Of a stretch of DNA of 64,000 nt, positions 5,954 to 62,910 are shown one piece after another. Made by a program: the position numbers and the translations under genes. How positions within the stretch are numbered: position 1 is the stretch's first letter; each line of letters opens with the position of its first letter. The notes under the pieces are model-generated. The model worked only from the letters and a program-made list of their open reading frames with translations. It was not told the DNA's origin and ran no database searches. The DNA comes from a virus (taxonomy: Duplodnaviria > Caudoviricetes): IMG/VR virus record IMGVR_UViG_3300027782_000030, positions 128,001 through 192,000 of that record; one strand, given 5' to 3'.

Positions 5954-6763
5954 ATGACAGATTTATCTAACATTGATTTTGGTAAATATAAACGCTTCTT
6001 TGCGTTTGGATGCAGTTTTACTTCATATCATTGGCCTACTTGGGCTGATGTATTAGCATCTGAAATGCCTAATGCTGAATTTTACAATTTTGGACATTGC
6101 GGTGGTGGTAATTCAATGATATCTAATCGCATTGCTGAAGCAAATTGTAGATATAAATTTACCGATACTGATTTAGTTGTGCCGATGTGGACTACATTTT
6201 GTAGAGAAGATAGGTATAGAACTGGTCAATGGATGAGTACTGGTAATATGTTTAGCCAAAATGAATTTGATGAAGAATTTGTGAGAAAATATTGCGACCC
6301 AATTGGATATTTGTTAAGAGATTTAGCAATAATTACTGTTACAAGTACCTATCTTAAATCCTTGCCTTCTGATTCATTCATGTTAAATGGAGTACCTTAT
6401 ACTTATCAAATGGATATTGAAACCGCACCATATCCAAAATTAAAAGAAATTTTGGAATTATATAAAGACACTATTAGCTTAACTCCACCTGCATTAGTTG
6501 ATTTAGAATTAGGAGGTGAATTTAAACACGGTCATGAATACTCAAGGATGCATAATGGTGATTGGTACTTAGACTATCATCCAAACACATTGCATTATAA
6601 TGGATACCTTAAAAAAATAGGTCTACCGTTAACATCTAAATCTTCAATGTATACAGAACATTCAATGACATTGTTAAAATCAACTAAAACAGAAGCACAA
6701 TTGATCATCGCCTTTAATAAAATGGTTGACGATAGAAATACAAAATTAAAAAATCTTTTTTGA
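5954..6763 (+). CDS. SGNH-like protein (GCS variant)
   Basis: FFAFGCSFT, NFGHCGGGN and DYHP resemble SGNH blocks I, II and V. Confidence 0.5.
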   Translation: MTDLSNIDFGKYKRFFAFGCSFTSYHWPTWADVLASEMPNAEFYNFGHCGGGNSMISNRIAEANCRYKFTDTDLVVPMWTTFCREDRYRTGQWMSTGNMFSQNEFDEEFVRKYCDPIGYLLRDLAIITVTSTYLKSLPSDSFMLNGVPYTYQMDIETAPYPKLKEILELYKDTISLTPPALVDLELGGEFKHGHEYSRMHNGDWYLDYHPNTLHYNGYLKKIGLPLTSKSSMYTEHSMTLLKSTKTEAQLIIAFNKMVDDRNTKLKNLF

Positions 6764-25916: not shown

Positions 25917-27017
25917 ATGGCTCAAGTATCTGACAATCTCACCGTTACTAGTGTTCAGGCCCGTAAGGCAATTCTCAAGGCGTTCAAGGTCAAACGTCCC
26001 GTGTTTCTTTGGGGTCCTCCCGGAATCGGTAAGAGTGAGGTTGTTTCCGAAATCACCGAGGAGCTCGGTGGTTTCATGATTGATTTGCGTATGGCGCAAA
26101 TGGAACCCACTGACATTCGTGGTATTCCCTTTTTCAACAAAGACAATGGCAAGATGGACTGGGCGCCCCCGGTTGATCTTCCTGACGAGGAACTTGCTAG
26201 CCAGTATCCTATCGTCTGTTTGTTCTTGGACGAGATGAACTCGGCTGCCCCTGCTGTACAGGCTGCAGGATATCAGTTGATTCTCAATCGCCGTGTTGGT
26301 AAGTACAAACTTCCTGATAACGTGGTGATTGTCGCGGCAGGTAACCGTGATAGCGACAAGGGTGTTACTTATCGTATGCCGATGCCCCTTGCTAATCGGT
26401 TCTTGCATATTGAAATGCGCCCCGACTTCACTTCGTGGCAGAACTGGGCAGTTAACAAAGGTATCCACAAGGATGTGGTTGGTTATCTGTCATTCGCTAA
26501 ACAGGATCTCTATGACTTTGATTCAAAGTCCTCTAGCCGCGCATTTGCTACTCCCCGTACTTGGTGCTTTGTCAGCGATTTGTTGAATGATGAAGAGGAT
26601 ACTGATTCCGATACCCTGTTCAACTTGGTTGCAGGTTCTGTTGGTGAAGGTCTTGCTGTTAAGTTTATGGCACACCGTAAGGTTGCGGGTCAGATGCCCG
26701 AGCCTAGCGACATTCTCGCAGGTAAGGTCAAGGAACTCCGTGTCAAGGAAGTGTCGGCAATGTACTCCCTCACGATTAGCCTGTGCTATGAATTGAAGGA
26801 TGCGCTTGACAACAAGCGTGTATCTAACAAACAGTTCCATGAAATGGCTGATAATTTCTTCAGTTACATCATGGCTAACTTTGAAACTGAGTTGGTCGTA
26901 ATGGGTGCAAAGGTCGCTCTGAAAACTTATCGTCTTCCGATCGAACCCAGTCAGTTGAAGCATTTTGATGACTTCCACAAGAAATACGGCAAGTACATTG
27001 TAGAAGCAGGTAACTGA
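25917..27017 (+). CDS. MoxR-like AAA+ ATPase
   Basis: Walker A GPPGIGKS, Walker B LFLDEMN, VAAGN and LANRF. Confidence 0.88.
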   Translation: MAQVSDNLTVTSVQARKAILKAFKVKRPVFLWGPPGIGKSEVVSEITEELGGFMIDLRMAQMEPTDIRGIPFFNKDNGKMDWAPPVDLPDEELASQYPIVCLFLDEMNSAAPAVQAAGYQLILNRRVGKYKLPDNVVIVAAGNRDSDKGVTYRMPMPLANRFLHIEMRPDFTSWQNWAVNKGIHKDVVGYLSFAKQDLYDFDSKSSSRAFATPRTWCFVSDLLNDEEDTDSDTLFNLVAGSVGEGLAVKFMAHRKVAGQMPEPSDILAGKVKELRVKEVSAMYSLTISLCYELKDALDNKRVSNKQFHEMADNFFSYIMANFETELVVMGAKVALKTYRLPIEPSQLKHFDDFHKKYGKYIVEAGN

Positions 27018-27019
27018 TC

Positions 27020-27045
27020 AAAGGGGAGGCAACTCCCCTTTTTTC
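27020..27045 (+). terminator. Rho-independent terminator
   Basis: AAAGGGGAG-GCAA-CTCCCCTTT followed by a T run. Confidence 0.85.
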
Positions 27046-27047
27046 AT

Positions 27048-27076
27048 TTGCAATTAAATACGGTATATGTTACAAT
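27048..27076 (+). promoter_or_regulatory. sigma70-type promoter
   Basis: TTGCAA-17-TACAAT. Confidence 0.6.
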
Positions 27077-27104
27077 ATAGCATATATACGATAAAGGAGT
27101 AGGT

Positions 27105-28388
27105 ATGAGTGATGTAGTCGCCCCAACTAAAAAACGCAAGCGCAGTAAAAAATTTGAGAACTTGGTCGGTCCTACCGACGCTAAAGTAGACTTCAATGCC
27201 CGTGAGCGGTTGGTAACTGCCCGCATTGGTCTGCTTCTCCGTCATTCATTCTTTGGTAACCTTGCGACCCGTATGCAACTGGTTAACGCCGATGAATGGT
27301 GTAGTACAGCCGCTACCGACGGCTTGAAATTCTATTACAATTCTCGGTTCATTATGATGCTAAAGCCCAAGGAAGTTGAATTCTTGGTTGGGCATGAAGT
27401 GCTCCACGTAGTCTACGATCATATCGGTCGTCGAGGCAATCGTGATCCCCAACTTTGGAACATTGCTGATGACTACGCCGTTAATGCCGATCTAAAACGG
27501 CACAAGGTCGGTGAGTTTATTAAAACCGTTCCTTGCTTGTACGAAGCAAAATACGACGGGAAGTCTGCCGAAGAAATCTATGATGACCTTTACGAAAAGG
27601 CAGAAAAGATTAACGTCGAGGATTTGATCGACCAAATGATTGATGATCATATGGAAGGTGAAAGTCAAGGTGAGAGTGACGGCGAAGAAATTGACGGTAG
27701 CGGTAAGGGCAAAGGTCGTCCTAAGATGAGCCCTGAGGAGCGTGAGCGTGTACGTCAGGAAGTCAAGCAGGCTATCATCAATGCCGCACAAGGTGCAGAA
27801 GCAGGTTCTGTTCCTAAAGGTGTTGAGCGGTTGATCAAACATCATACTAATCCAGTAATGCCTTGGCGTGAGTTGATTCAAACTAACTTGACCAGTTCTA
27901 TTCGTACCGACTTTAGTTTTATTCGCCCTAATCGTCGCGGTTGGCACATGGATGCTATCATGCCTGGTATGACCCCGGGTGAAGAAATTGATGTTGTGGT
28001 TAGCCTTGATATGTCAGGGTCTATCACTGATAAACAAGGACAGGCATTCTTAGGTGAGATTGCAGGTATGATGGATGCCTTTGACGGATACAAAGTACAT
28101 GTATTCTGTTTTGATACAGAAATCTACAATCCACAAGACTTTACCAGCGAGAACCTAGATTCAATTGATTCATATGAACCAGTTGGTGGCGGTGGTACTG
28201 ACTTTGATGCTATCTTCGGCTATCTTAAAGAAAACGCAATCGAACCAAAACGTTTGATTGTATTTACAGATGGTTATCCTTGCGGTAGTTGGGGAGATCC
28301 TGACTATTGCGATACGACTTGGATCATTCATGGTGATAAGGATCCGAACCCCCCGTTTGGGACTTTCGCTATCTATGACGAGAAGTGA
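27105..28388 (+). CDS. Metallopeptidase-like plus VWA domain protein (DUF2201-type), partner of the MoxR ATPase
   Basis: TAATDG, HEVLH (HExxH), MIDAS LDMSGS, GGGGTDF and VFTDG. Confidence 0.88.
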   Translation: MSDVVAPTKKRKRSKKFENLVGPTDAKVDFNARERLVTARIGLLLRHSFFGNLATRMQLVNADEWCSTAATDGLKFYYNSRFIMMLKPKEVEFLVGHEVLHVVYDHIGRRGNRDPQLWNIADDYAVNADLKRHKVGEFIKTVPCLYEAKYDGKSAEEIYDDLYEKAEKINVEDLIDQMIDDHMEGESQGESDGEEIDGSGKGKGRPKMSPEERERVRQEVKQAIINAAQGAEAGSVPKGVERLIKHHTNPVMPWRELIQTNLTSSIRTDFSFIRPNRRGWHMDAIMPGMTPGEEIDVVVSLDMSGSITDKQGQAFLGEIAGMMDAFDGYKVHVFCFDTEIYNPQDFTSENLDSIDSYEPVGGGGTDFDAIFGYLKENAIEPKRLIVFTDGYPCGSWGDPDYCDTTWIIHGDKDPNPPFGTFAIYDEK

Positions 28389-54661: not shown

Positions 54662-54910
54662 TTGTTTTATTACAATCATGAATCACCAAAGACTTGGGAA
54701 CAATGTAAGCCAGGTTGGTATGAATTTAAAATCTATTTGAATGATTCAGTATCACATGAACTTAAGTATATAGAATCAATTATAGATTGGGTTTACAATA
54801 ATATTGACAAATGTGAAAGACATGCTAGATGGGCTGTAACAAATGAATCCTTTAACATTAAGTTTCGTTACCAACGAGACTATATGATGTTTGTTTTGCG
54901 TTGGTCATGA
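54662..54910 (+). CDS. Small F-x-L-x-W family protein
   Basis: Ends DYMMFVLRWS. The start codon is uncertain. Confidence 0.65.
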   Translation: MFYYNHESPKTWEQCKPGWYEFKIYLNDSVSHELKYIESIIDWVYNNIDKCERHARWAVTNESFNIKFRYQRDYMMFVLRWS

Positions 54911-55119
54911 ATTCTGTTATAATTTATAATAAACACACCGGTGAAATCAGCGGTATAATAAATGAATTAAAAACGCATGGGCTCATTGCTAATGAGCATT
55001 ATGAATTTAGATATTATCCCGGTACTTGGGATCCCATGATAGGTGATGTTCCAAAAAAGTGTGAGTTTACTTTTAAAGATGCTAAACTAGCAAGTTGGTT
55101 TCTATTGAGGTGGGGATGA
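54907..55119 (+). CDS. Small F-x-L-x-W family protein
   Basis: Ends ASWFLLRWG, ATGA overlap. Confidence 0.7.
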   Translation: MNSVIIYNKHTGEISGIINELKTHGLIANEHYEFRYYPGTWDPMIGDVPKKCEFTFKDAKLASWFLLRWG

Positions 55120-55310
55120 AACTACTAAAAGCCGACCAAGCCGATAGTTTAGTAGTCATCATAAGAGATTATGAATTTTTTGATGGAGAGACTACCGAAG
55201 AAATGGATGAGTGGTGTTGGCAAACATTTGGATATCATCCTAGAGAGGGTATGGTTATGACATTTAAAGAGCCTAGTCATACTAATTGGTTTATGTTAAG
55301 ATGGGGATAA
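55116..55310 (+). CDS. Small F-x-L-x-W family protein
   Basis: Ends TNWFMLRWG, ATGA overlap. Confidence 0.7.
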   Translation: MKLLKADQADSLVVIIRDYEFFDGETTEEMDEWCWQTFGYHPREGMVMTFKEPSHTNWFMLRWG

Positions 55311-55592
55311 ACGAATTTAATCACTTATCACCTATCATTGACTGTGTTGACATGGTAGAATACAAAAATCCACGAGACCATACAGGAATTACATTTGTCG
55401 TTAAAGACAAACATAAAGAAATTATTCAATGGTGTCGTAGAAATTTTGGACAGCGTGGTGACGGCTGGGATTTTATGGCTGGAACTCGACATGTTCAAAT
55501 AACTATTTGGTCTAGTAAACTTATTACAATGTACGAATTATGGATGAATTAATTAAACTTCTATGTAATTGGTTTATGTTAAGATGGGGATA
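55283..55592 (+). repeat. 27-nt direct repeat pair (55283-55309 and 55566-55592)
   Basis: TAATTGGTTTATGTTAAGATGGGGATA occurs twice. Confidence 0.9.
55301..55552 (+). CDS. Small F-x-L-x-W family protein
   Basis: IIQWCRRNFG, ends ITMYELWMN. Confidence 0.65.
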   Translation: MGINEFNHLSPIIDCVDMVEYKNPRDHTGITFVVKDKHKEIIQWCRRNFGQRGDGWDFMAGTRHVQITIWSSKLITMYELWMN

Positions 55593-55829
55593 GAGACTAA
55601 ATGCAAGCGGAGAACACCAGAAGATTGGCATACCGTGATTACTGGAAAAGCCAATCACTGGCAGGCCATTGATTGGTGTACTGAACAATTTGGTCGACGC
55701 TGGGGTGTTGTAGATAATAGAGATGGCGTATGGTGTTGCTTTTGGGCTGGTCGAGAACAATTTGGTTCTTATAGATGGTATTTTGAAAATGAGTGTGATG
55801 CTATGTGGTTTACAATGAGGTGGGCGTGA
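55584..55829 (+). CDS. Small F-x-L-x-W family protein
   Basis: AIDWCTEQFG, ends DAMWFTMRWA. Confidence 0.65.
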   Translation: MGIETKCKRRTPEDWHTVITGKANHWQAIDWCTEQFGRRWGVVDNRDGVWCCFWAGREQFGSYRWYFENECDAMWFTMRWA

Positions 55830-55847
55830 AAAGGCCATGAAAACAGG

Positions 55848-55876
55848 TTGACATTAAATTGACATGGCTGTATAAT
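55848..55876 (+). promoter_or_regulatory. Early sigma70 promoter
   Basis: TTGACA-17-TATAAT. Confidence 0.88.
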
Positions 55877-55908
55877 GTATACATACATTGACCAATAGGA
55901 GTTAATTT

Positions 55909-56115
55909 GTGAACAAACGAATTCTTGAACTTGCCTTAAAGTCTGGTAGCACACACAAACAGAATCTTGGTGTGTATCAATTCTATGAAGATGAATTGGA
56001 AAAGTTTGCTGAATTTATTGTGAATGAATGTCTGCGACAGGCAAAGGAAGTGGTAATTCCTATTACAGCCGATGCTATTGAAAGCAAGATTAAAGAATAT
56101 TTTAGAGTTGAATGA
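55909..56115 (+). CDS. MNERI-family small protein 1
   Basis: MNKRILELA...KFAEFIVNEC...YFRVE. Confidence 0.7.
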   Translation: MNKRILELALKSGSTHKQNLGVYQFYEDELEKFAEFIVNECLRQAKEVVIPITADAIESKIKEYFRVE

Positions 56116-56477
56116 TGAAAATCAGATACAGTACTAATTGGATGGGACCAGTCAGTATGAATTGGTATGAACAACGCGGCCTTGTTGAAACTAAAATAGT
56201 CACACTGGAGGAGGACTCTGCTTTCAGTGGCCTTAAGGCTGGCGATCAATATGAATCGCAAGAAATTACCACTCATTATAGTTGTGGTAGAATAGATGTG
56301 AGAGGAACCGATGATCCTCATGGTGATGAAATAGGTGTGCCGCCAATGCAGAGTGATGATTGGGCTAGATTTGGTAATTGGCTTGAAACTTTTGAAACTG
56401 ATGCGGTTTGGACATTGGATCAACTAGTCGAACTATACGAACGTGTTAACCCTAAGATCAAGTGGGATAAACAATGA
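56112..56477 (+). CDS. Hypothetical protein
   Basis: 121 aa, ATGA overlaps. Confidence 0.7.
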   Translation: MMKIRYSTNWMGPVSMNWYEQRGLVETKIVTLEEDSAFSGLKAGDQYESQEITTHYSCGRIDVRGTDDPHGDEIGVPPMQSDDWARFGNWLETFETDAVWTLDQLVELYERVNPKIKWDKQ

Positions 56478-56650
56478 ACGAACGAATCCGAGAACTTGCT
56501 GAACAAGTATATGGTTCATTACACTATGATGATTTGAAGTTTGCCGAGTTGATTATTCAGGAATGTGTCAATGTATTTTTAGGTGCCGACACCAAAAACA
56601 TTCAATTGGCAATGAAAAGAATGAAACAACATTTTGGGATTGAATTATGA
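56474..56650 (+). CDS. MNERI-family small protein 2, missed by the ORF track
   Basis: MNERIRELAEQ...KFAELIIQEC...QHFGIEL. Confidence 0.7.
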   Translation: MNERIRELAEQVYGSLHYDDLKFAELIIQECVNVFLGADTKNIQLAMKRMKQHFGIEL

Positions 56651-56841
56651 ACGAACGAATTAGAATATTGGCTGAACAGGCTGAATTTTCCGAAAAAGAC
56701 TTGCACATTCAAGGTGATAATTTTCAAAGGTTCGCCGAGTTGATTGTGCGGGAATGTGCATTGACTGCTGGCTTGATGGAGCATGAAGGTAGGTCCAATA
56801 TTGGCGCACAAATATTAGATAATTTTGGAGTTGAATCGTGA
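56647..56841 (+). CDS. MNERI-family small protein 3
   Basis: MNERIRILAEQ...RFAELIVREC...NFGVES. Confidence 0.7.
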   Translation: MNERIRILAEQAEFSEKDLHIQGDNFQRFAELIVRECALTAGLMEHEGRSNIGAQILDNFGVES

Positions 56842-57182
56842 GCCTTGATGTATCTCTAATGGTAACTAAACCTGTAGCAGTCTATGTCAACAACATCACC
56901 CATAACTTGGCTAAGATGGCTAGTGAAGTTAAATTGTCAAATGGTTTAACACTGTATGATGTTCTATGGCGTCCTGATGAACAACACGACCTAGTATTGG
57001 CTAAAGATATTGCAGAACTACTAGACGAAGGTTATAAAATTTTGATCAGTGACCCCGACCATTTCAAAAAATTCAATCCAGAGAATGGTTGGGGCAATTA
57101 CGATAATCTTTGTAAGTTTGTTTATGAATACTGGAGTGCTTGCCGAGCCAACTCAGGTGCCGAGGTACAGGTATGTCGATGA
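56838..57182 (+). CDS. Hypothetical phage protein
   Basis: NITHNLAKMA...FNPENGWGNY. Confidence 0.7.
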   Translation: MSLDVSLMVTKPVAVYVNNITHNLAKMASEVKLSNGLTLYDVLWRPDEQHDLVLAKDIAELLDEGYKILISDPDHFKKFNPENGWGNYDNLCKFVYEYWSACRANSGAEVQVCR

Positions 57183-57409
57183 ACGAACGAATTAAAGAAC
57201 TTGCTGAACAGGTTGGCGTAAAATATAGCCTATGGCTTGGTAGTAAACCTGCTGCTTATATGACTTATGGTGAACTAGAAAAATTCGCCGAGTTGATTGT
57301 GAAAGAATGTTTGGACATTGTTAATAGACACGAATACAGTTATCATGAGGCTGACCCACTTTGGGAAACTGCTCAATTGATTAAACAACATTTTGGAGTT
57401 GAAGAATGA
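57179..57409 (+). CDS. MNERI-family small protein 4
   Basis: MNERIKELAEQ...KFAELIVKEC...QHFGVEE. Confidence 0.7.
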   Translation: MNERIKELAEQVGVKYSLWLGSKPAAYMTYGELEKFAELIVKECLDIVNRHEYSYHEADPLWETAQLIKQHFGVEE

Positions 57410-57994: not shown

Positions 57995-58684
57995 ATGAAT
58001 GAATTAATAGACGGAAGTGGTTATGTATTAACTAAGAATTTTATTCCTGAACAATTAATTGATAATGTAGTTAATCGTTTAGATGAAATTTCACCAGTCC
58101 GTGCCTCTAGTAGCACAATGGAATATGCTGAAAAAGAAGATATAAAAAACTTACCTGATATAGCGGTATGGTGGTCACAAACTGTTATTAATTGGCCTGA
58201 AGTTTTAGAAATAGAAAAATTATTAAATCCATTAATTAAAAAATACTTACCTAATGCTGAATTTTATTCTAGTGATATTGTAGTAATTGAAAAAGAAAGT
58301 ACTTGGCTAAACCCACATGTGGACACTCCCCACAGATTTAAAAAATATAATTACGATAAAAGACTACTAGGTATACAGTGTATTATTTCACTAAGTGATA
58401 TCAATAAAGATTCTGCTAGCACTGGATTAGTCCCTCAAAGTCAACTAAAGGATTATAATATTAATTTGTGCTATGAGGGTTTATATAATGATTTCTTTTT
58501 AGAACATTGTATTCAACCTGATATGCCCAAAGGATCTGTTCTATTTTATAATTGTAGGGTATTACACAGTAGTATGCCTAATCCATTGCCCAAATCAAGA
58601 CCGGCATTATTGCTTCATTACCTAAATAGTGATATAATTGAAGATGTAAAAGATATTGACAATATTTGGAAAAGCAATAAATGA
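57995..58684 (+). CDS. PhyH-like 2OG-Fe(II) dioxygenase
   Basis: PHVDTP (HxD), KGSVLFYN, LHSS and RPALLLHY. Confidence 0.8.
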   Translation: MNELIDGSGYVLTKNFIPEQLIDNVVNRLDEISPVRASSSTMEYAEKEDIKNLPDIAVWWSQTVINWPEVLEIEKLLNPLIKKYLPNAEFYSSDIVVIEKESTWLNPHVDTPHRFKKYNYDKRLLGIQCIISLSDINKDSASTGLVPQSQLKDYNINLCYEGLYNDFFLEHCIQPDMPKGSVLFYNCRVLHSSMPNPLPKSRPALLLHYLNSDIIEDVKDIDNIWKSNK

Positions 58685-59301
58685 AAATTGAATCGGATGT
58701 TGATATTGATTTTGGAGATAGAGAAAAGATTCTTCAACATATCAAATATATTCCAGCCGCAATGCGTAAGGTTAAGCCACAACGCAAACATGCTACGGGT
58801 GTCCATATTACACAAATTCCATATGATCCCGTTAATGATATGGCTGCTATTGATTATTCAGATGCGGAACAGCGTGGATACTTTAAGTTAGATTTACTAA
58901 ATGTCCATGTATATAACCAAGTTAGGGATGAACTACATTTAGTTGAATTAATGCGTGATCCAAATTGGGACAACTTAAAAGATAAAGGGTTTGTAGAGAA
59001 ACTGATACACTTGGGTAATCATTATCAATCACTTCAAAAAATGCCTGAATCGGTTACTAGTATTCCTAGATTGGCAATGTTTTTAGCATTGATTCGTCCT
59101 GCTAAAAAACATTTAATTGGTAAGACTTGGCGAGAAGTAAGTAAAACAGTATGGGATAAAGGTGATGATGGTTATCAGTTTAAGAAAGCACATGCCATTG
59201 GTTATAGTCAATTAGTGGTAGTACATATGAACTTGTTAGAAGAATCAGGGCATTCTTTTGACAAGAGTGATGCTTCTGCGTTTGCTTCTTCTCTTGTGTA
59301 A
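58681..59301 (+). CDS. Miniature DNA polymerase III alpha (DnaE)-like palm protein
   Basis: SDVDIDF, RKHATGV, GYFKLDLLNV and FKKAHAIGY match DnaE motifs in order, in only 206 aa. Confidence 0.7.
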   Translation: MKIESDVDIDFGDREKILQHIKYIPAAMRKVKPQRKHATGVHITQIPYDPVNDMAAIDYSDAEQRGYFKLDLLNVHVYNQVRDELHLVELMRDPNWDNLKDKGFVEKLIHLGNHYQSLQKMPESVTSIPRLAMFLALIRPAKKHLIGKTWREVSKTVWDKGDDGYQFKKAHAIGYSQLVVVHMNLLEESGHSFDKSDASAFASSLV

Positions 59302-59625
59302 TTCATTCATACTACATACAGGGCCATGTAGTATTATTAAACTTTTATTCGTAAAAGTTCTTAGATAAGGTTTAAAAGGAAGCCAATCTTCCTTTAAGAA
59401 TAAATTAATGGGAATCAATCTATTTGATTCCCACCACCATATATCACCTAATTCTAGAAAACGAGTTTTAGAATTACTATCTACGATTGATCCATAATCG
59501 TATATAGTAGTAACACTATCATCTTTATTTTGAACTATTCCTACATAGTCCTGATTAGCGTAGGAACATACCGTTATAAACGGATGATTGTCACTAAGCT
59601 TTTTAAAAAACTCATTTTGGATCAT
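59245..59625 (-). CDS. Hypothetical protein
   Basis: 126 aa, with a TATAAAT-like motif upstream on the minus strand. Confidence 0.7.
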   Translation of the reverse strand: MIQNEFFKKLSDNHPFITVCSYANQDYVGIVQNKDDSVTTIYDYGSIVDSNSKTRFLELGDIWWWESNRLIPINLFLKEDWLPFKPYLRTFTNKSLIILHGPVCSMNELHKRRSKRRSITLVKRMP

Positions 59626-59716: not shown

Positions 59717-60496
59717 GTGTACTCAACTGCTGTATTTCTTTATACTCAGCGTCAAATTGTTGTACTTTTAACCGGCACATCACCGAGGAGATATATGCCT
59801 GTATACGCAAAACCATTAACTTTAAATAAGGGTGTGGATAATCAAATACAATTTCAATTCATCAATCAGGAACAAAAACCAGTAGACATTACTGGTAAAG
59901 AAATTTCCTGTAGAATTATTAGTTATGATGGTACTCAAGTATTGCTTAGAAAGGCACTAACATTACAACTACCGGCTACAGGCATTGCCGCACTAATATT
60001 AAATGCTGCTGAAATAGAAGATATTCCCGCCCAATTAGGACATTATTCGTTAGAAATACCAGTTGGTGCTTTTAACTTCCCAGTGTTTGTAGACCAAAAT
60101 GCAGGTGCTCGTGGTGACATGAATATTGTCAACAGCGTGTTGCCATCCTTTGTGCCTAGTTCAAATATCACTATTCCTACAGGACAAGCCTTTCCAAATA
60201 TTGATTCTAACAATAGTATACAAAACGCATTACCAAATGCCAATACTTACTATAGTAGCGTAATCAATACAGACTCTAATCCAATATTGACTCTTCAGGC
60301 TCATTACTATCAATTCAATGGTGATGTTACCGTTGAAGGTTCTACTATTGTAGATGCTGATTGGTATCCTATAACTACTTCAACTTATAGTAATGTAACT
60401 GACACTTTTGGGTATACCGTTCGTGGATTCCATCCATATATCCGTATGCAGTTTGTCAGCAACACTGGTGCGGTAACTAACATATTGGCAAGGTAA
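59717..60496 (+). CDS. Probable virion structural protein
   Basis: TAAATA motif and AAGGAG SD upstream of a beta-rich 259-aa ORF. Confidence 0.55.
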   Translation: MYSTAVFLYTQRQIVVLLTGTSPRRYMPVYAKPLTLNKGVDNQIQFQFINQEQKPVDITGKEISCRIISYDGTQVLLRKALTLQLPATGIAALILNAAEIEDIPAQLGHYSLEIPVGAFNFPVFVDQNAGARGDMNIVNSVLPSFVPSSNITIPTGQAFPNIDSNNSIQNALPNANTYYSSVINTDSNPILTLQAHYYQFNGDVTVEGSTIVDADWYPITTSTYSNVTDTFGYTVRGFHPYIRMQFVSNTGAVTNILAR

Positions 60497-60539: not shown

Positions 60540-61523
60540 ATGTTTGAAATATTAACTATAGTTCCGGGTAAGAAAAAACTAACACAAAGTGGTTGGCATG
60601 GGTTCAACGCTGTGTGTTGCCATCACCGTGGACATAAAGCAGATAAAAGAGGTCGTGCTGGTTTAAGAATCGATGGGCCAAACTGGAGTATCCATTGTTT
60701 TAATTGTGGTTTTAAGTGTGGATTCACTCTAGGTAAAAGCATTACCCAAAACACAAGAAATTTCTTACAATGGTGTGGGATAGAGGAAACTCAGATTCAG
60801 CGTTGGAGTTTAGAAAGTCTACAGAAAAAGGATATCTTAGATTTTATTAAGCCAAAAAATGATGAGATTATAACATTTAGTTATAGAGCATTGCCTGATG
60901 ATTGTGAAAGCCTTAATATTAGTAATCCAAAACACTTCAGATATATAGAATATTTAGAAAAAAGGGGAATACACTATGATAGTTATCCTTTTAAAGTAAC
61001 TCCTACAGGTACTGGAAGAGTTGATAGTAGAAAAGAACATAGAATAATTATACCATATTTTTACAAATCTAAGATTGTAGGTAATACTAGTCGCTTTTTA
61101 GATAACAAATCGCCTAAATATTTTAATGTACAACAACCTGGATATGTTTTTAATATAGATAAACAAAGTCCAAGTTGGTCCGTATGTATACTTACGGAAG
61201 GTATATTTGATGCGTTATCTATTGATGGTCTTGCTCTTATGCACAATGATATAAGTTCAGACCAAGCCAAGTTAATAAGTACATTAAACAGGCCTGTTAT
61301 TCTAGTTCCAGATAGAGATATGACTGGTCTTAAATTGTGTAACCGAGCTTTAGAATTAGGGTATAAAGTCAGTATTCCAAATTGGGAATCTGATGTAAAA
61401 GATGTTAATGATGCTGTAGTAAGATATGGTAAGTTACCTACATTGTTAAGTATTTTACAGTGTGCAACTACTAGTAAAGTCAAAATAGAAATTCAAAGGA
61501 GAAAACTTGAGCAACGAATATAA
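60540..61523 (+). CDS. gp61: DNA primase (T4 gp61-like)
   Basis: Zn motif CCH...HCFNCG and TOPRIM motifs LTEGIFDA and PDRD. Confidence 0.88.
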   Translation: MFEILTIVPGKKKLTQSGWHGFNAVCCHHRGHKADKRGRAGLRIDGPNWSIHCFNCGFKCGFTLGKSITQNTRNFLQWCGIEETQIQRWSLESLQKKDILDFIKPKNDEIITFSYRALPDDCESLNISNPKHFRYIEYLEKRGIHYDSYPFKVTPTGTGRVDSRKEHRIIIPYFYKSKIVGNTSRFLDNKSPKYFNVQQPGYVFNIDKQSPSWSVCILTEGIFDALSIDGLALMHNDISSDQAKLISTLNRPVILVPDRDMTGLKLCNRALELGYKVSIPNWESDVKDVNDAVVRYGKLPTLLSILQCATTSKVKIEIQRRKLEQRI

Positions 61524-62910
61524 TAGTGATATGCAATTATTCTTTTTGCGTATGATGGTCACAAACGCAGAATTATATACAAGGGTCATGAACATCATGA
61601 ACTCACAAAACTTTGACCGTAAATTAAAACCAGTAGCAGACTTTTTAGTTGAACATAGTAAAAAATATAATATAATGCCGGATCCTGCTCAAATTAAAGC
61701 AGTGACGGGTATAGATGTAGAGATTCTTACTGAATTAGATGATGGTCATTATAATTGGTTTTTAGATGAATTTGAAAAATTCACAAGACGCCAAGAATTA
61801 GAAAGAGCAATTTTAAAATCAGCCGATCTATTAGAAAAGGGTGATTATGATCCTGTTGAAAAATTAATTAAAGATGCTGTACAAATCAGTTTGCAAAAAG
61901 ACATGGGTACAGATTATTTTGCTGATCCTAGGGCTAGGCTTTCGCAACTTAAAAGCAATAACGGACAAAATAGTACAGGATGGCCCTGTATGGATCAGAA
62001 ACTTTATGGTGGATTCAATCGGGGCGAATTACAAATTTTTGCAGGAGGATCAGGATCAGGTAAAAGTTTGTTTATGCAAAACTTGTCAGTAAATTGGGTA
62101 CAAGCAGGATTAAATGGTATTTATGTTACACTAGAACTTAGTGAAGGGCTGTGTAGTATGCGTATTGATAGTATGATGACTGATACTAGCAGCCGTGATA
62201 TCTTTAAAGATATTGATAATGTTGAAATGAAAATCAAGATGCTTGCTAAAAAAGCAGGAAAGTTTCAAATTAAATATATGCCGGCTCAAAGCACAGTAAA
62301 TGATTTGCGAGCGTTTTGTAAAGAATTTCAAATAAAAACAGGTACAAAATTAGATTTCTTGTGTGTAGATTATTTGGATTTGCTTATGCCTGTTAGCGCA
62401 AAAGTAAGTCCTTCAGATTTGTTTGTTAAGGATAAGTATGTCTCAGAAGAATTGCGTAACTTAGCAAAAGAATTAAATGTATTATTTGTAACAGCAAGTC
62501 AATTGAACCGTAGTGCAGTTGAAGAAATTGAATTTGATCATAGTCATATCAGCGGTGGTATTAGTAAAATTAATACAGCAGATAATGTGTTTGGTATCTT
62601 TACAAGCCGCAGTATGCGTGAGCGTGGGCAATATCAATTACAATTAATGAAAACTAGAAGTAGTAGTGGTGTGGGTCAAAAGATTGAATTAGAGTTTAAC
62701 ATTGAAACTCTGCGAATTACTGATCCTGATCCTGAGGCTAGTACATATAGGCCTCCTGCCCCTAGTCCTAATGATCTTATTAATAAAATTAGAACTCAAT
62801 CTACAGTAAATGATGTTGTACATGCTACTGTAGAGCCTGAAAGTAAAAGAGTTATTGCTAGTACTGCTGAATTTAGGTTGAAGGGCATACTCAACGGGTT
62901 AAAGAAATAA
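61507..62910 (+). CDS. gp41: Replicative helicase (T4 gp41/DnaB-like)
   Basis: AGGSGSGKS, CVDYLD, TASQLNR and MKTR. Confidence 0.92.
   Translation: MSNEYNSDMQLFFLRMMVTNAELYTRVMNIMNSQNFDRKLKPVADFLVEHSKKYNIMPDPAQIKAVTGIDVEILTELDDGHYNWFLDEFEKFTRRQELERAILKSADLLEKGDYDPVEKLIKDAVQISLQKDMGTDYFADPRARLSQLKSNNGQNSTGWPCMDQKLYGGFNRGELQIFAGGSGSGKSLFMQNLSVNWVQAGLNGIYVTLELSEGLCSMRIDSMMTDTSSRDIFKDIDNVEMKIKMLAKKAGKFQIKYMPAQSTVNDLRAFCKEFQIKTGTKLDFLCVDYLDLLMPVSAKVSPSDLFVKDKYVSEELRNLAKELNVLFVTASQLNRSAVEEIEFDHSHISGGISKINTADNVFGIFTSRSMRERGQYQLQLMKTRSSSGVGQKIELEFNIETLRITDPDPEASTYRPPAPSPNDLINKIRTQSTVNDVVHATVEPESKRVIASTAEFRLKGILNGLKK

Follow-up and report, generated by a model that had tools for sequence, protein, structure and literature searches.

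We examined a window of 64,000 nucleotides from an uncultured freshwater giant phage (Duplodnaviria; Caudoviricetes), covering positions 128,001 to 192,000 of the IMG/VR record IMGVR_UViG_3300027782_000030, a linear record of 200,570 bp with a CheckV completeness of 58%. Two public freshwater sequencing runs contain 97-99% of the words sampled from the sequence, and among the public runs none from RNA is listed for this stretch. The gene of interest, at 58681-59301 on the plus strand, encodes a protein of 206 amino acids (aa) that is related to the alpha subunit of DNA polymerase III (Pol III alpha, family C; DnaE in Escherichia coli) and probably represents one half of a split minimal polymerase. 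The interval 57995-59301, in which an earlier note had placed a 206-aa miniature DnaE with all three catalytic aspartates, holds two plus-strand open reading frames (ORFs), one of 229 aa at 57995-58684 encoding a PhyH-type dioxygenase, and the polymerase ORF of 206 aa. The latter is intact, with a clean start and stop, and no upstream extension is possible because an in-frame TAA codon directly precedes its ATG. The two genes overlap in an ATGA, with the ATG at 58681-58683 and the TGA at 58682-58684 (...AAT AAA TGA / ATG AAA ATT). Such start/stop overlaps of four nucleotides (4 nt) are the norm among the neighbouring small genes upstream of the polymerase gene, and the coupling alone therefore says little.

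We found DVDIDF (residues 6-11), KHATGV (36-41), KLDLL (69-73) and FKKAHAIGY (167-175) in the protein, standing in the same order as the corresponding motifs of DnaE, with D71 located 63 residues after D8. The intact frame, the overlap and the four motifs described in the earlier note are all confirmed from the sequence, and the identity of the PhyH gene by Pfam. The polymerase gene and its motifs, with E. coli DnaE residue numbers taken from the K-12 gene, are as follows.

58681-59301, plus strand: C-terminal (metal- and template-binding) unit of a putative split minimal Pol III alpha-like polymerase, 206 aa (phrog_11778, family profile, AlphaFold2 model, ratio of nonsynonymous to synonymous substitution rates (dN/dS))
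58696-58710, plus strand: DVDID, first beta-strand, in which D6, D8 and D10 correspond to the metal ligands D401, D403 and D405 of E. coli DnaE (hidden Markov model (HMM) alignment, DnaE numbering)
58786-58803, plus strand: KHATGV, corresponding to KHAGGV at E. coli 510-515 (H37 in 77 of 78 homologs, G40 in 76 of 78)
58885-58893, plus strand: K69-L70-D71, corresponding to E. coli K553-F554-D555, with the third catalytic aspartate (profile and hhalign alignments)
59095-59100, plus strand: R139-P140 of LALIRPAKK, corresponding to E. coli R639-P640, where the fingers start (hhalign to DnaE 540-642)
59179-59205, plus strand: FKKAHAIGY, corresponding to FNKSHSAAY at E. coli 756-764, a helix of the fingers bearing H171, the counterpart of H760 and presumptive steric-gate histidine (HMM alignment, DnaE 739-769)

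The C-terminal tail of 13-16 residues is not conserved and has no counterpart in most homologs, which measure 190-197 aa. At 59245-59301 of the window a convergent gene of 126 aa extends with its 3' end over the final 19 codons of the polymerase gene, and the tail is of low confidence in the structural model.

Relationship to the C-family polymerases

Pfam returned no domain in the 206-aa protein, even at E<=1, a single-sequence phmmer search of the protein against the PDB gave noise only, and comparing all ORFs with E. coli DnaE by phmmer gave no useful signal, the 206-aa protein itself scoring no better than E=5. We next used a family profile built from an alignment of 78 diverse full-length homologs (A1), which is also the basis of the conservation counts and of the AlphaFold2 model. 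Against the PDB, its significant matches were exclusively to Pol III alpha, namely those of E. coli (2hnh, 7e-6), Thermus (2hpi, 6e-5) and Mycobacterium tuberculosis (5lew, 6e-5). On E. coli DnaE the match consists of three collinear segments, at residues 399-418, 538-641 and 739-769, and hhalign of the family to DnaE 540-642 gave an E-value of 7e-5.

The AlphaFold2 model has a mean predicted local distance difference test score (pLDDT) of 92.2 and a predicted template modelling score (pTM) of 0.86, with the uncertainty confined to the last ~15 residues. Foldseek alone returned nothing at E<=0.001 for this model; its top 15 matches were C-family polymerases throughout, the best at E 2e-3. Upon superposition with VIA-align, the model matched PolC (3f2b; Z 9.6, 197 residues aligned, 3.6 A), Thermus (Taq) Pol III alpha (3e0d; Z 9.0, 200 residues aligned) and E. 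coli Pol III alpha (2hnh; Z 8.3, 195 residues aligned, model residues 1-200 on chain range 397-791). All of the top 15 rows were DnaE or PolC, and the best unrelated fold scored Z 3.5. The ~195 aligned residues are spread over a stretch of 395 residues in DnaE. The thumb, ~80 residues between the DxD region and KHAGGV in DnaE, is replaced by a short loop at residues 27-35 of the 206-aa protein, and the fingers lack ~115 residues that in DnaE separate RP from FNKSH. The 206-aa protein is a homolog of Pol III alpha that keeps the catalytic aspartates and lacks the thumb and the PHP, HhH, OB and clamp-binding parts, and profile, fold and motif mapping agree here with what the earlier note had proposed.

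Conservation and selection across the family

The 206-aa protein matches phrog_11778, labelled 'DNA polymerase', at 3.6e-55. A word-indexed search recovered 4272 homologs sized 190-216 aa, and an exhaustive search of 1.84 billion representatives yielded 368 clusters at 50% identity, nearly all of 180-220 aa, indicating that the family is very abundant in freshwater metagenomes. A homolog is found in 96 jumbo-phage records, including PA5oct, Atu_ph07 and the RaK2/121Q group. The cultured homologs all belong to jumbo phages of the group 2.2 type (Atu_ph07, PA5oct, RaK2/121Q/GAP32), and the genomes of the relatives measure 350-525 kb.

In Pol III alpha from E. coli the active-site residues are D401, D403 and D555, and the presumptive steric gate for the sugar is H760, which does not vary in Pol III alpha (PMC8485763). 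Across A1, the residues corresponding to these and to the remaining motifs are kept as follows.

D6 (E. coli D401): 78 of 78
D8 (E. coli D403): 78 of 78
D10 (E. coli D405): 77 of 78
H37 (E. coli H511): 77 of 78
G40 of KHATGV: 76 of 78
K69 (E. coli K553): 78 of 78
D71 (E. coli D555): 78 of 78
R139 (E. coli R639): 77 of 78
P140 (E. coli P640): 78 of 78
K168 (E. coli K758): 72 of 78, with arginine in another 5
H171 (E. coli H760): 77 of 78
Y175 (E. coli Y764): 67 of 78

The three catalytic aspartates are therefore invariant, and conservation across 78 homologs indicates that the motifs are not a product of chance. Against close relatives, the gene has a dN/dS of 0.07-0.14; it is real and under strong purifying selection.

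Upon examining the Atu_ph07 locus (MF403008.1, L002:6001-6576), we also noticed that the deposited coding sequence of the homolog, AUZ94883.1, begins at an internal methionine at locus position 6082. The full ORF begins at 6001 with MKNIPDIDIDF, and the deposited protein hence lacks the DxD motif.

The first half of the palm is a separate protein in relatives

The 206-aa chain starts five residues before the DxD strand (MKIES-DVDID), and the preceding part of the Pol-beta-like palm, which carries G-R-G-S at E. coli 361-364, is absent from it. A scan of the 200-kb record with a regular expression for GRGS-type motifs found unrelated proteins only. When E. coli DnaE 270-405 was used as query, we found a single small ORF in 121Q (180 aa) and a single one in Atu_ph07 (177 aa), and in 121Q this gene lies 31 kb from the gene of the 206-aa homolog. 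Both proteins, hereafter N-halves, contain G-[LV]-GRGS and end in ...EFL[KE], exactly at the point where the 206-aa protein and its homologs, the C-halves, begin. The N-half scores over the cut-off of Pfam DNA_pol3_alpha (PF07733; 34.4 bits, 2.4e-8) and also matches phrog_11127. As a separate protein it measures ~173 aa and is strongly conserved, with an invariant GVGRGSS.

Iyer et al. 2021 (PMC7824862, section 3.4.1) described from sequence, for jumbo phages of group 2.2, a minimal Pol III alpha specific to phages, which in that section is split into an N-terminal protein binding the nucleoside triphosphate (NTP) and a C-terminal protein binding Mg2+ and the template, encoded by distant genes and sitting beside a family B polymerase. 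The observations as a whole are best explained if the 206-aa protein is the C-terminal unit of this split minimal Pol III alpha of RaK2/PA5oct/Atu_ph07-type jumbo phages, a reading to which we assign a probability of roughly 0.85. That the protein could be one piece of a split polymerase had been offered as an alternative in the earlier note, and the separate N-half of relatives, together with three natural fusions, now speaks for it.

Natural fusions and predicted assembly

We found three clusters of proteins of 375-376 aa (P0167, P0272, P0273), on independent contigs, in which the N-half and the C-half form a single chain. These came from the exhaustive search of representatives; the word-based search for longer relatives returned none. 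The fused forms are 78-81% identical to each other and join the halves by an ordinary linker of ~12 residues. An alignment to PF07733 runs through the junction (residues 97-207, 4.8e-16), and the fused chain has matches to both PHROGs. The fused gene occupies the C-half locus and is followed by homologs of the convergent small ORF and of the 259-aa gene of the window; two such loci are at L097:1066-2193 and L185:519-1649 of metagenome contigs. In a quick maximum-likelihood tree, midpoint-rooted, the fused forms are a single clade (Shimodaira-Hasegawa-like approximate likelihood ratio test (SH-aLRT) 100) inside a supported group (97), whose nine remaining members are true split C-halves, with starts 4-10 residues ahead of DxD. 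By this nesting, the fusion looks secondary. The family has been known from sequence since 2021 (PMC7824862); relative to section 3.4.1 of that account, which calls the enzyme split and does not include them, the 375-aa fused forms are an addition, as are the confinement of PhyH to one clade in a variable slot and the placement of the partner past the end of the record. The fused forms could serve as ready single-chain constructs for biochemistry.

Furthermore, we predicted the complex of the C-half with the N-half of the closest relative. The ipSAE was 0.91, compared with 0.00 for the best of three controls; in a benchmark, 58 of 80 solved complexes attained the ipSAE mark, as did 2 of 110 mismatched pairs. 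The contacts agree to at least 97% between the three runs, and the partner has a pLDDT of at least 88. In the predicted complex, the pairing partner of the DxD strand (residues 9-11) is found next to the GRGS loop, at residues 138-139 of the N-half, and the steric-gate helix contacts the same loop. The prediction is a measure of the compatibility of the two halves, not of their binding.

Points against a split polymerase and the location of the partner

Several observations weigh against this interpretation. The N-half gene was not found in the 200-kb, 58%-complete record with PF07733, two N-half protein queries, phrog_11127, a local HMM of 22 N-halves or a motif scan, a family B polymerase (PF00136) is likewise absent from the record, and the partner of this phage itself is inferred from its relatives. 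The score of the complex may stem from the resemblance of both chains to DnaE structures solved as one chain, and it was obtained with the N-half of the closest relative. The DEDDh exonuclease gene that lies directly upstream of the C-half gene in most relatives has no homolog in this record. Our literature search brought up no study that tests a member of the family biochemically or genetically. Finally, the enzyme would have to do without a thumb, without roughly half the fingers, among them the segment of E. coli R709/R710, and without any known DNA- or clamp-binding appendage, which leaves templated synthesis plausible, not assured.

The absence of both the N-half and the family B polymerase is best explained by truncation of the record, because its last base maps ~30 kb short of the N-half of the closest relative, and because relatives carry both genes. 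This closest relative, a 56-kb record whose C-half is 89% identical, encodes an N-half of 174 aa with GVGRGSS 47.4 kb downstream of the C-half, and is collinear with our record from the C-half to the last base of the latter at 78-84% nucleotide identity. As a control, PF07733 was applied to the four complete relatives, and each gave a single frame of N-half size that passes the Pfam cut-off (168-184 aa in three of them; in Atu_ph07 the match read through a stop, and the N-half ORF itself has 177 aa), and each complete relative examined has one N-half and one C-half. In a 352-kb relative of 100% completeness, 43 kb separate the two halves, and the gene for a family B polymerase is 75 kb away from that of the C-half. 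A weak top match at genome 195874-196200 was set aside, as its 109-aa translation looks like an IscA/HesB-type Fe-S protein.

None of the four complete relatives examined carries a full-length dnaE, and all four carry a family B polymerase. The window has a T4-type context, with a terminase, a gp32-like single-stranded DNA-binding protein, UvsX, a UvsW-like helicase, a primase and a helicase. Both observations agree with the earlier suggestion that the main replicase of this phage is a different enzyme.

Upon examining the surroundings of the N-half gene, we also observed that a small gene (114-136 aa, with a shared N-A-R-G-D motif) follows it at L088:1090-1470 (minus strand), L005:1792-2136 (plus strand) and L004:1084-1494 (minus strand), making it a conserved neighbour of the N-half in a freshwater relative, 121Q and Atu_ph07.

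Proposed mechanism and alternative explanations

We propose that the 206-aa chain would supply the ligands for the two metals (the DxD strand and the third aspartate), K69 and cut-down fingers with the steric-gate helix, and that the N-half would hold the triphosphate through its GVGRGSS loop. The two chains are predicted to join non-covalently, without an intein, completing one beta-sheet and thereby a single active site. As to catalysis, substrate and biological role, we infer an enzyme that would extend a primer on a template with deoxynucleotides; we favour this since both the steric-gate histidine and the RP motif are kept. Synthesis would probably be distributive, because there is neither a thumb nor a link to the clamp, and the enzyme may serve in accessory repair, gap-filling or primer extension beside the family B replicase, a role that Iyer et al. 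also suggest (PMC7824862). If the two chains do form an active polymerase, it would be the smallest known C-family core, with ~380 residues compared with ~1,160, and would offer a tractable model both of the catalytic needs of a bacterial replicase and of the reasons for giant phages to retain a second polymerase beside the family B replicase.

The same two chains could instead form a repurposed nucleotidyltransferase that does not copy DNA, such as a terminal transferase, a maker of nucleotide signals or an enzyme acting on RNA. The lack of a thumb, of half the fingers and of DNA-binding appendages would suit such an enzyme, many Pol-beta-fold enzymes are non-templated transferases (PMC11646218), and in many relatives the gene upstream encodes an exoribonuclease-type DEDDh protein like Rv2179c or a cytidylyltransferase-like protein. 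We consider this unlikely, since a non-templated ribonucleotide enzyme would need neither the steric-gate histidine, kept in 77 of 78 homologs, nor the RP motif, since the nearest proteins by both sequence and fold are replicative polymerases only, and since the gene holds a fixed place beside the primase and helicase genes in distant phages. A narrower role, to which we give a similarly small share, is that of a dedicated primer-extension polymerase tied to the adjoining primase-helicase module and passing RNA primers to the family B replicase; this clade would then lack the DEDDh editing partner, with PhyH in its slot. DnaE of Bacillus subtilis is said to extend primers for PolC, and Pol alpha to act likewise in eukaryotes. 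In a related reading, the family may preserve an ancestral minimal core of the C-family polymerases; the tree suggests instead that the fused forms are secondary.

Less probable still is the self-sufficient 'thumbless palm' of the earlier note, in which the 206-aa protein would by itself work as a miniature polymerase or nucleotidyltransferase. This one chain does contain all three of the metal-binding aspartates together with K69 and the steric-gate helix, and the N-half is not in this record. However, the chain lacks the G[RK]GS helix-loop, the triphosphate-binding part in Pol-beta-fold enzymes; the GVGRGSS half is a separate conserved protein of 170-180 aa, present once per complete relative and fused to the C-half in three lineages; and the 58%-complete record ends ~30 kb before the expected position of the N-half. 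The thumb is thus indeed absent, whereas the palm is not self-sufficient, and the earlier reading is partly supported. A decaying fragment of a captured bacterial dnaE, as the coverage of only parts of DnaE 397-791 could suggest, can be dismissed given the 4272 similar-sized homologs, the 368 clusters at 50% identity, the low dN/dS, the invariant catalytic residues, the clean start and stop, the confident predicted fold, and close relatives in which no frameshifts or relaxed selection were seen.

Comparison with known polymerases

The system closest to the split polymerase proposed here is the minimal Pol III alpha of PMC7824862, with which, as described in section 3.4.1, the 206-aa protein shares its small stand-alone form, the Mg2+-chelating aspartates and a template-binding remnant; its relatives also have the distant N-half plus a family B polymerase, and T4-type replisome genes lie in the window. 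This copy differs from the system of that section in coming from an uncultured freshwater phage, in its C-terminal tail, and in being coupled to PhyH rather than to DEDDh as in most freshwater relatives. With DnaE and PolC, it shares the catalytic triad, K-x-D, KHxxGV, RP and F-x-K-x-H in the same order, and the same fold over ~195 residues. In contrast to these, it has about one sixth of the length, lacks the PHP, thumb, HhH, OB and beta-clamp-binding parts, and has its palm divided between two polypeptides; a complete palm with the G-S triphosphate loop in one chain is a feature of DnaE and PolC, not of the 206-aa protein.

Polymerase X (Pol X) of African swine fever virus (ASFV) is a functional analogue, being a viral Pol-beta-fold enzyme with a nucleotidyltransferase fold and fingers that acts in repair (PMC11646218). 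It belongs to family X, not C, and is a single chain, and no sequence relationship to the 206-aa protein was detected; by analogy, it shows that a viral palm-plus-fingers polymerase this small can work. The split-intein DnaE of cyanobacteria likewise yields Pol III alpha from two distant genes, dnaE-n and dnaE-c. The cyanobacterial halves carry intein pieces and are spliced into full-length DnaE, whereas there is no intein at the junction here: since the C-half has five residues before DxD and the N-half of relatives ends in ...EFLK, there is no room for intein segments.

Gene neighbourhood and the variable upstream slot

The genes flanking the C-half gene in the window are the following.

57995-58684, plus strand: PhyH-type 2-oxoglutarate/Fe(II) dioxygenase, 229 aa (Pfam PhyH, 9.2e-9)
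59245-59625, minus strand: small convergent gene, 126 aa (phrog_11637, 7.9e-31; the same position is filled in 121Q, in Atu_ph07 and beside the fused form)
59717-60496, plus strand: conserved gene, 259 aa (phrog_1084, 2.8e-9; 121Q gene 18, 'structural protein', is the positional counterpart, and a homolog lies beside the fused form)
60540-61523, plus strand: DNA primase, Toprim (phrog_47, 1.7e-33; weak Toprim_2 and DNAG_N Pfam matches)
61507-62910, plus strand: replicative helicase, DnaB/T4 gp41-like (phrog_19, 1.5e-69)

The primase and helicase genes reported earlier in the vicinity thus lie just downstream, and the order of C-half, convergent ORF, structural-protein-like gene, primase and gp41/DnaB-type helicase is common to 121Q, Atu_ph07 and this phage.

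The slot upstream of the C-half gene varies between relatives. PhyH occupies it only in the six closest loci (89-93% identity). Among the ~75 freshwater loci having an upstream ORF, ~45 carry a DEDDh exonuclease resembling Rv2179c (PF16473, 6e-33) that likewise overlaps by 4 nt, and in ~17 freshwater loci the upstream gene is cytidylyltransferase-like (PF01467). HNH, membrane or other genes fill it elsewhere in the related loci L012-L085, usually with a 4-nt overlap, and across these loci the slot is a replacement hot spot. PhyH is a local, clade-specific replacement in this variable slot and not a conserved partner; as a functional partner it was ruled out, given the variation among relatives and the generality of 4-nt overlaps nearby, and the coupling to which the earlier note had drawn attention carries no such meaning. 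For this window the consequence is mainly a correct annotation, in which the PhyH link should not be over-read.

Additional observations in the window and record

Further upstream on the plus strand, at 54901-57409 of the window, we observed two runs of small paralogous genes that are translationally coupled. The first consists of ~4 genes for proteins of 70-90 aa ending in ...RWG or ...RWA, and the second of ~5 genes for proteins of 58-89 aa with an N-terminal ERI-ELAEQ motif and a central FAELI-EC motif. Additionally, the segment at 25917-28388 has a guanine-cytosine content of 0.47, compared with ~0.34, and encodes an ATPase (phrog_1297, 2e-101) and then a protein of 427 aa with a match at 8e-108 to phrog_1314, whose label is HNH endonuclease. 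Finally, just past the window, at G000:C1:192103-193317, lies an ORF with a K-W-D-G motif, read from the translation, that is typical of ATP-dependent DNA ligases.

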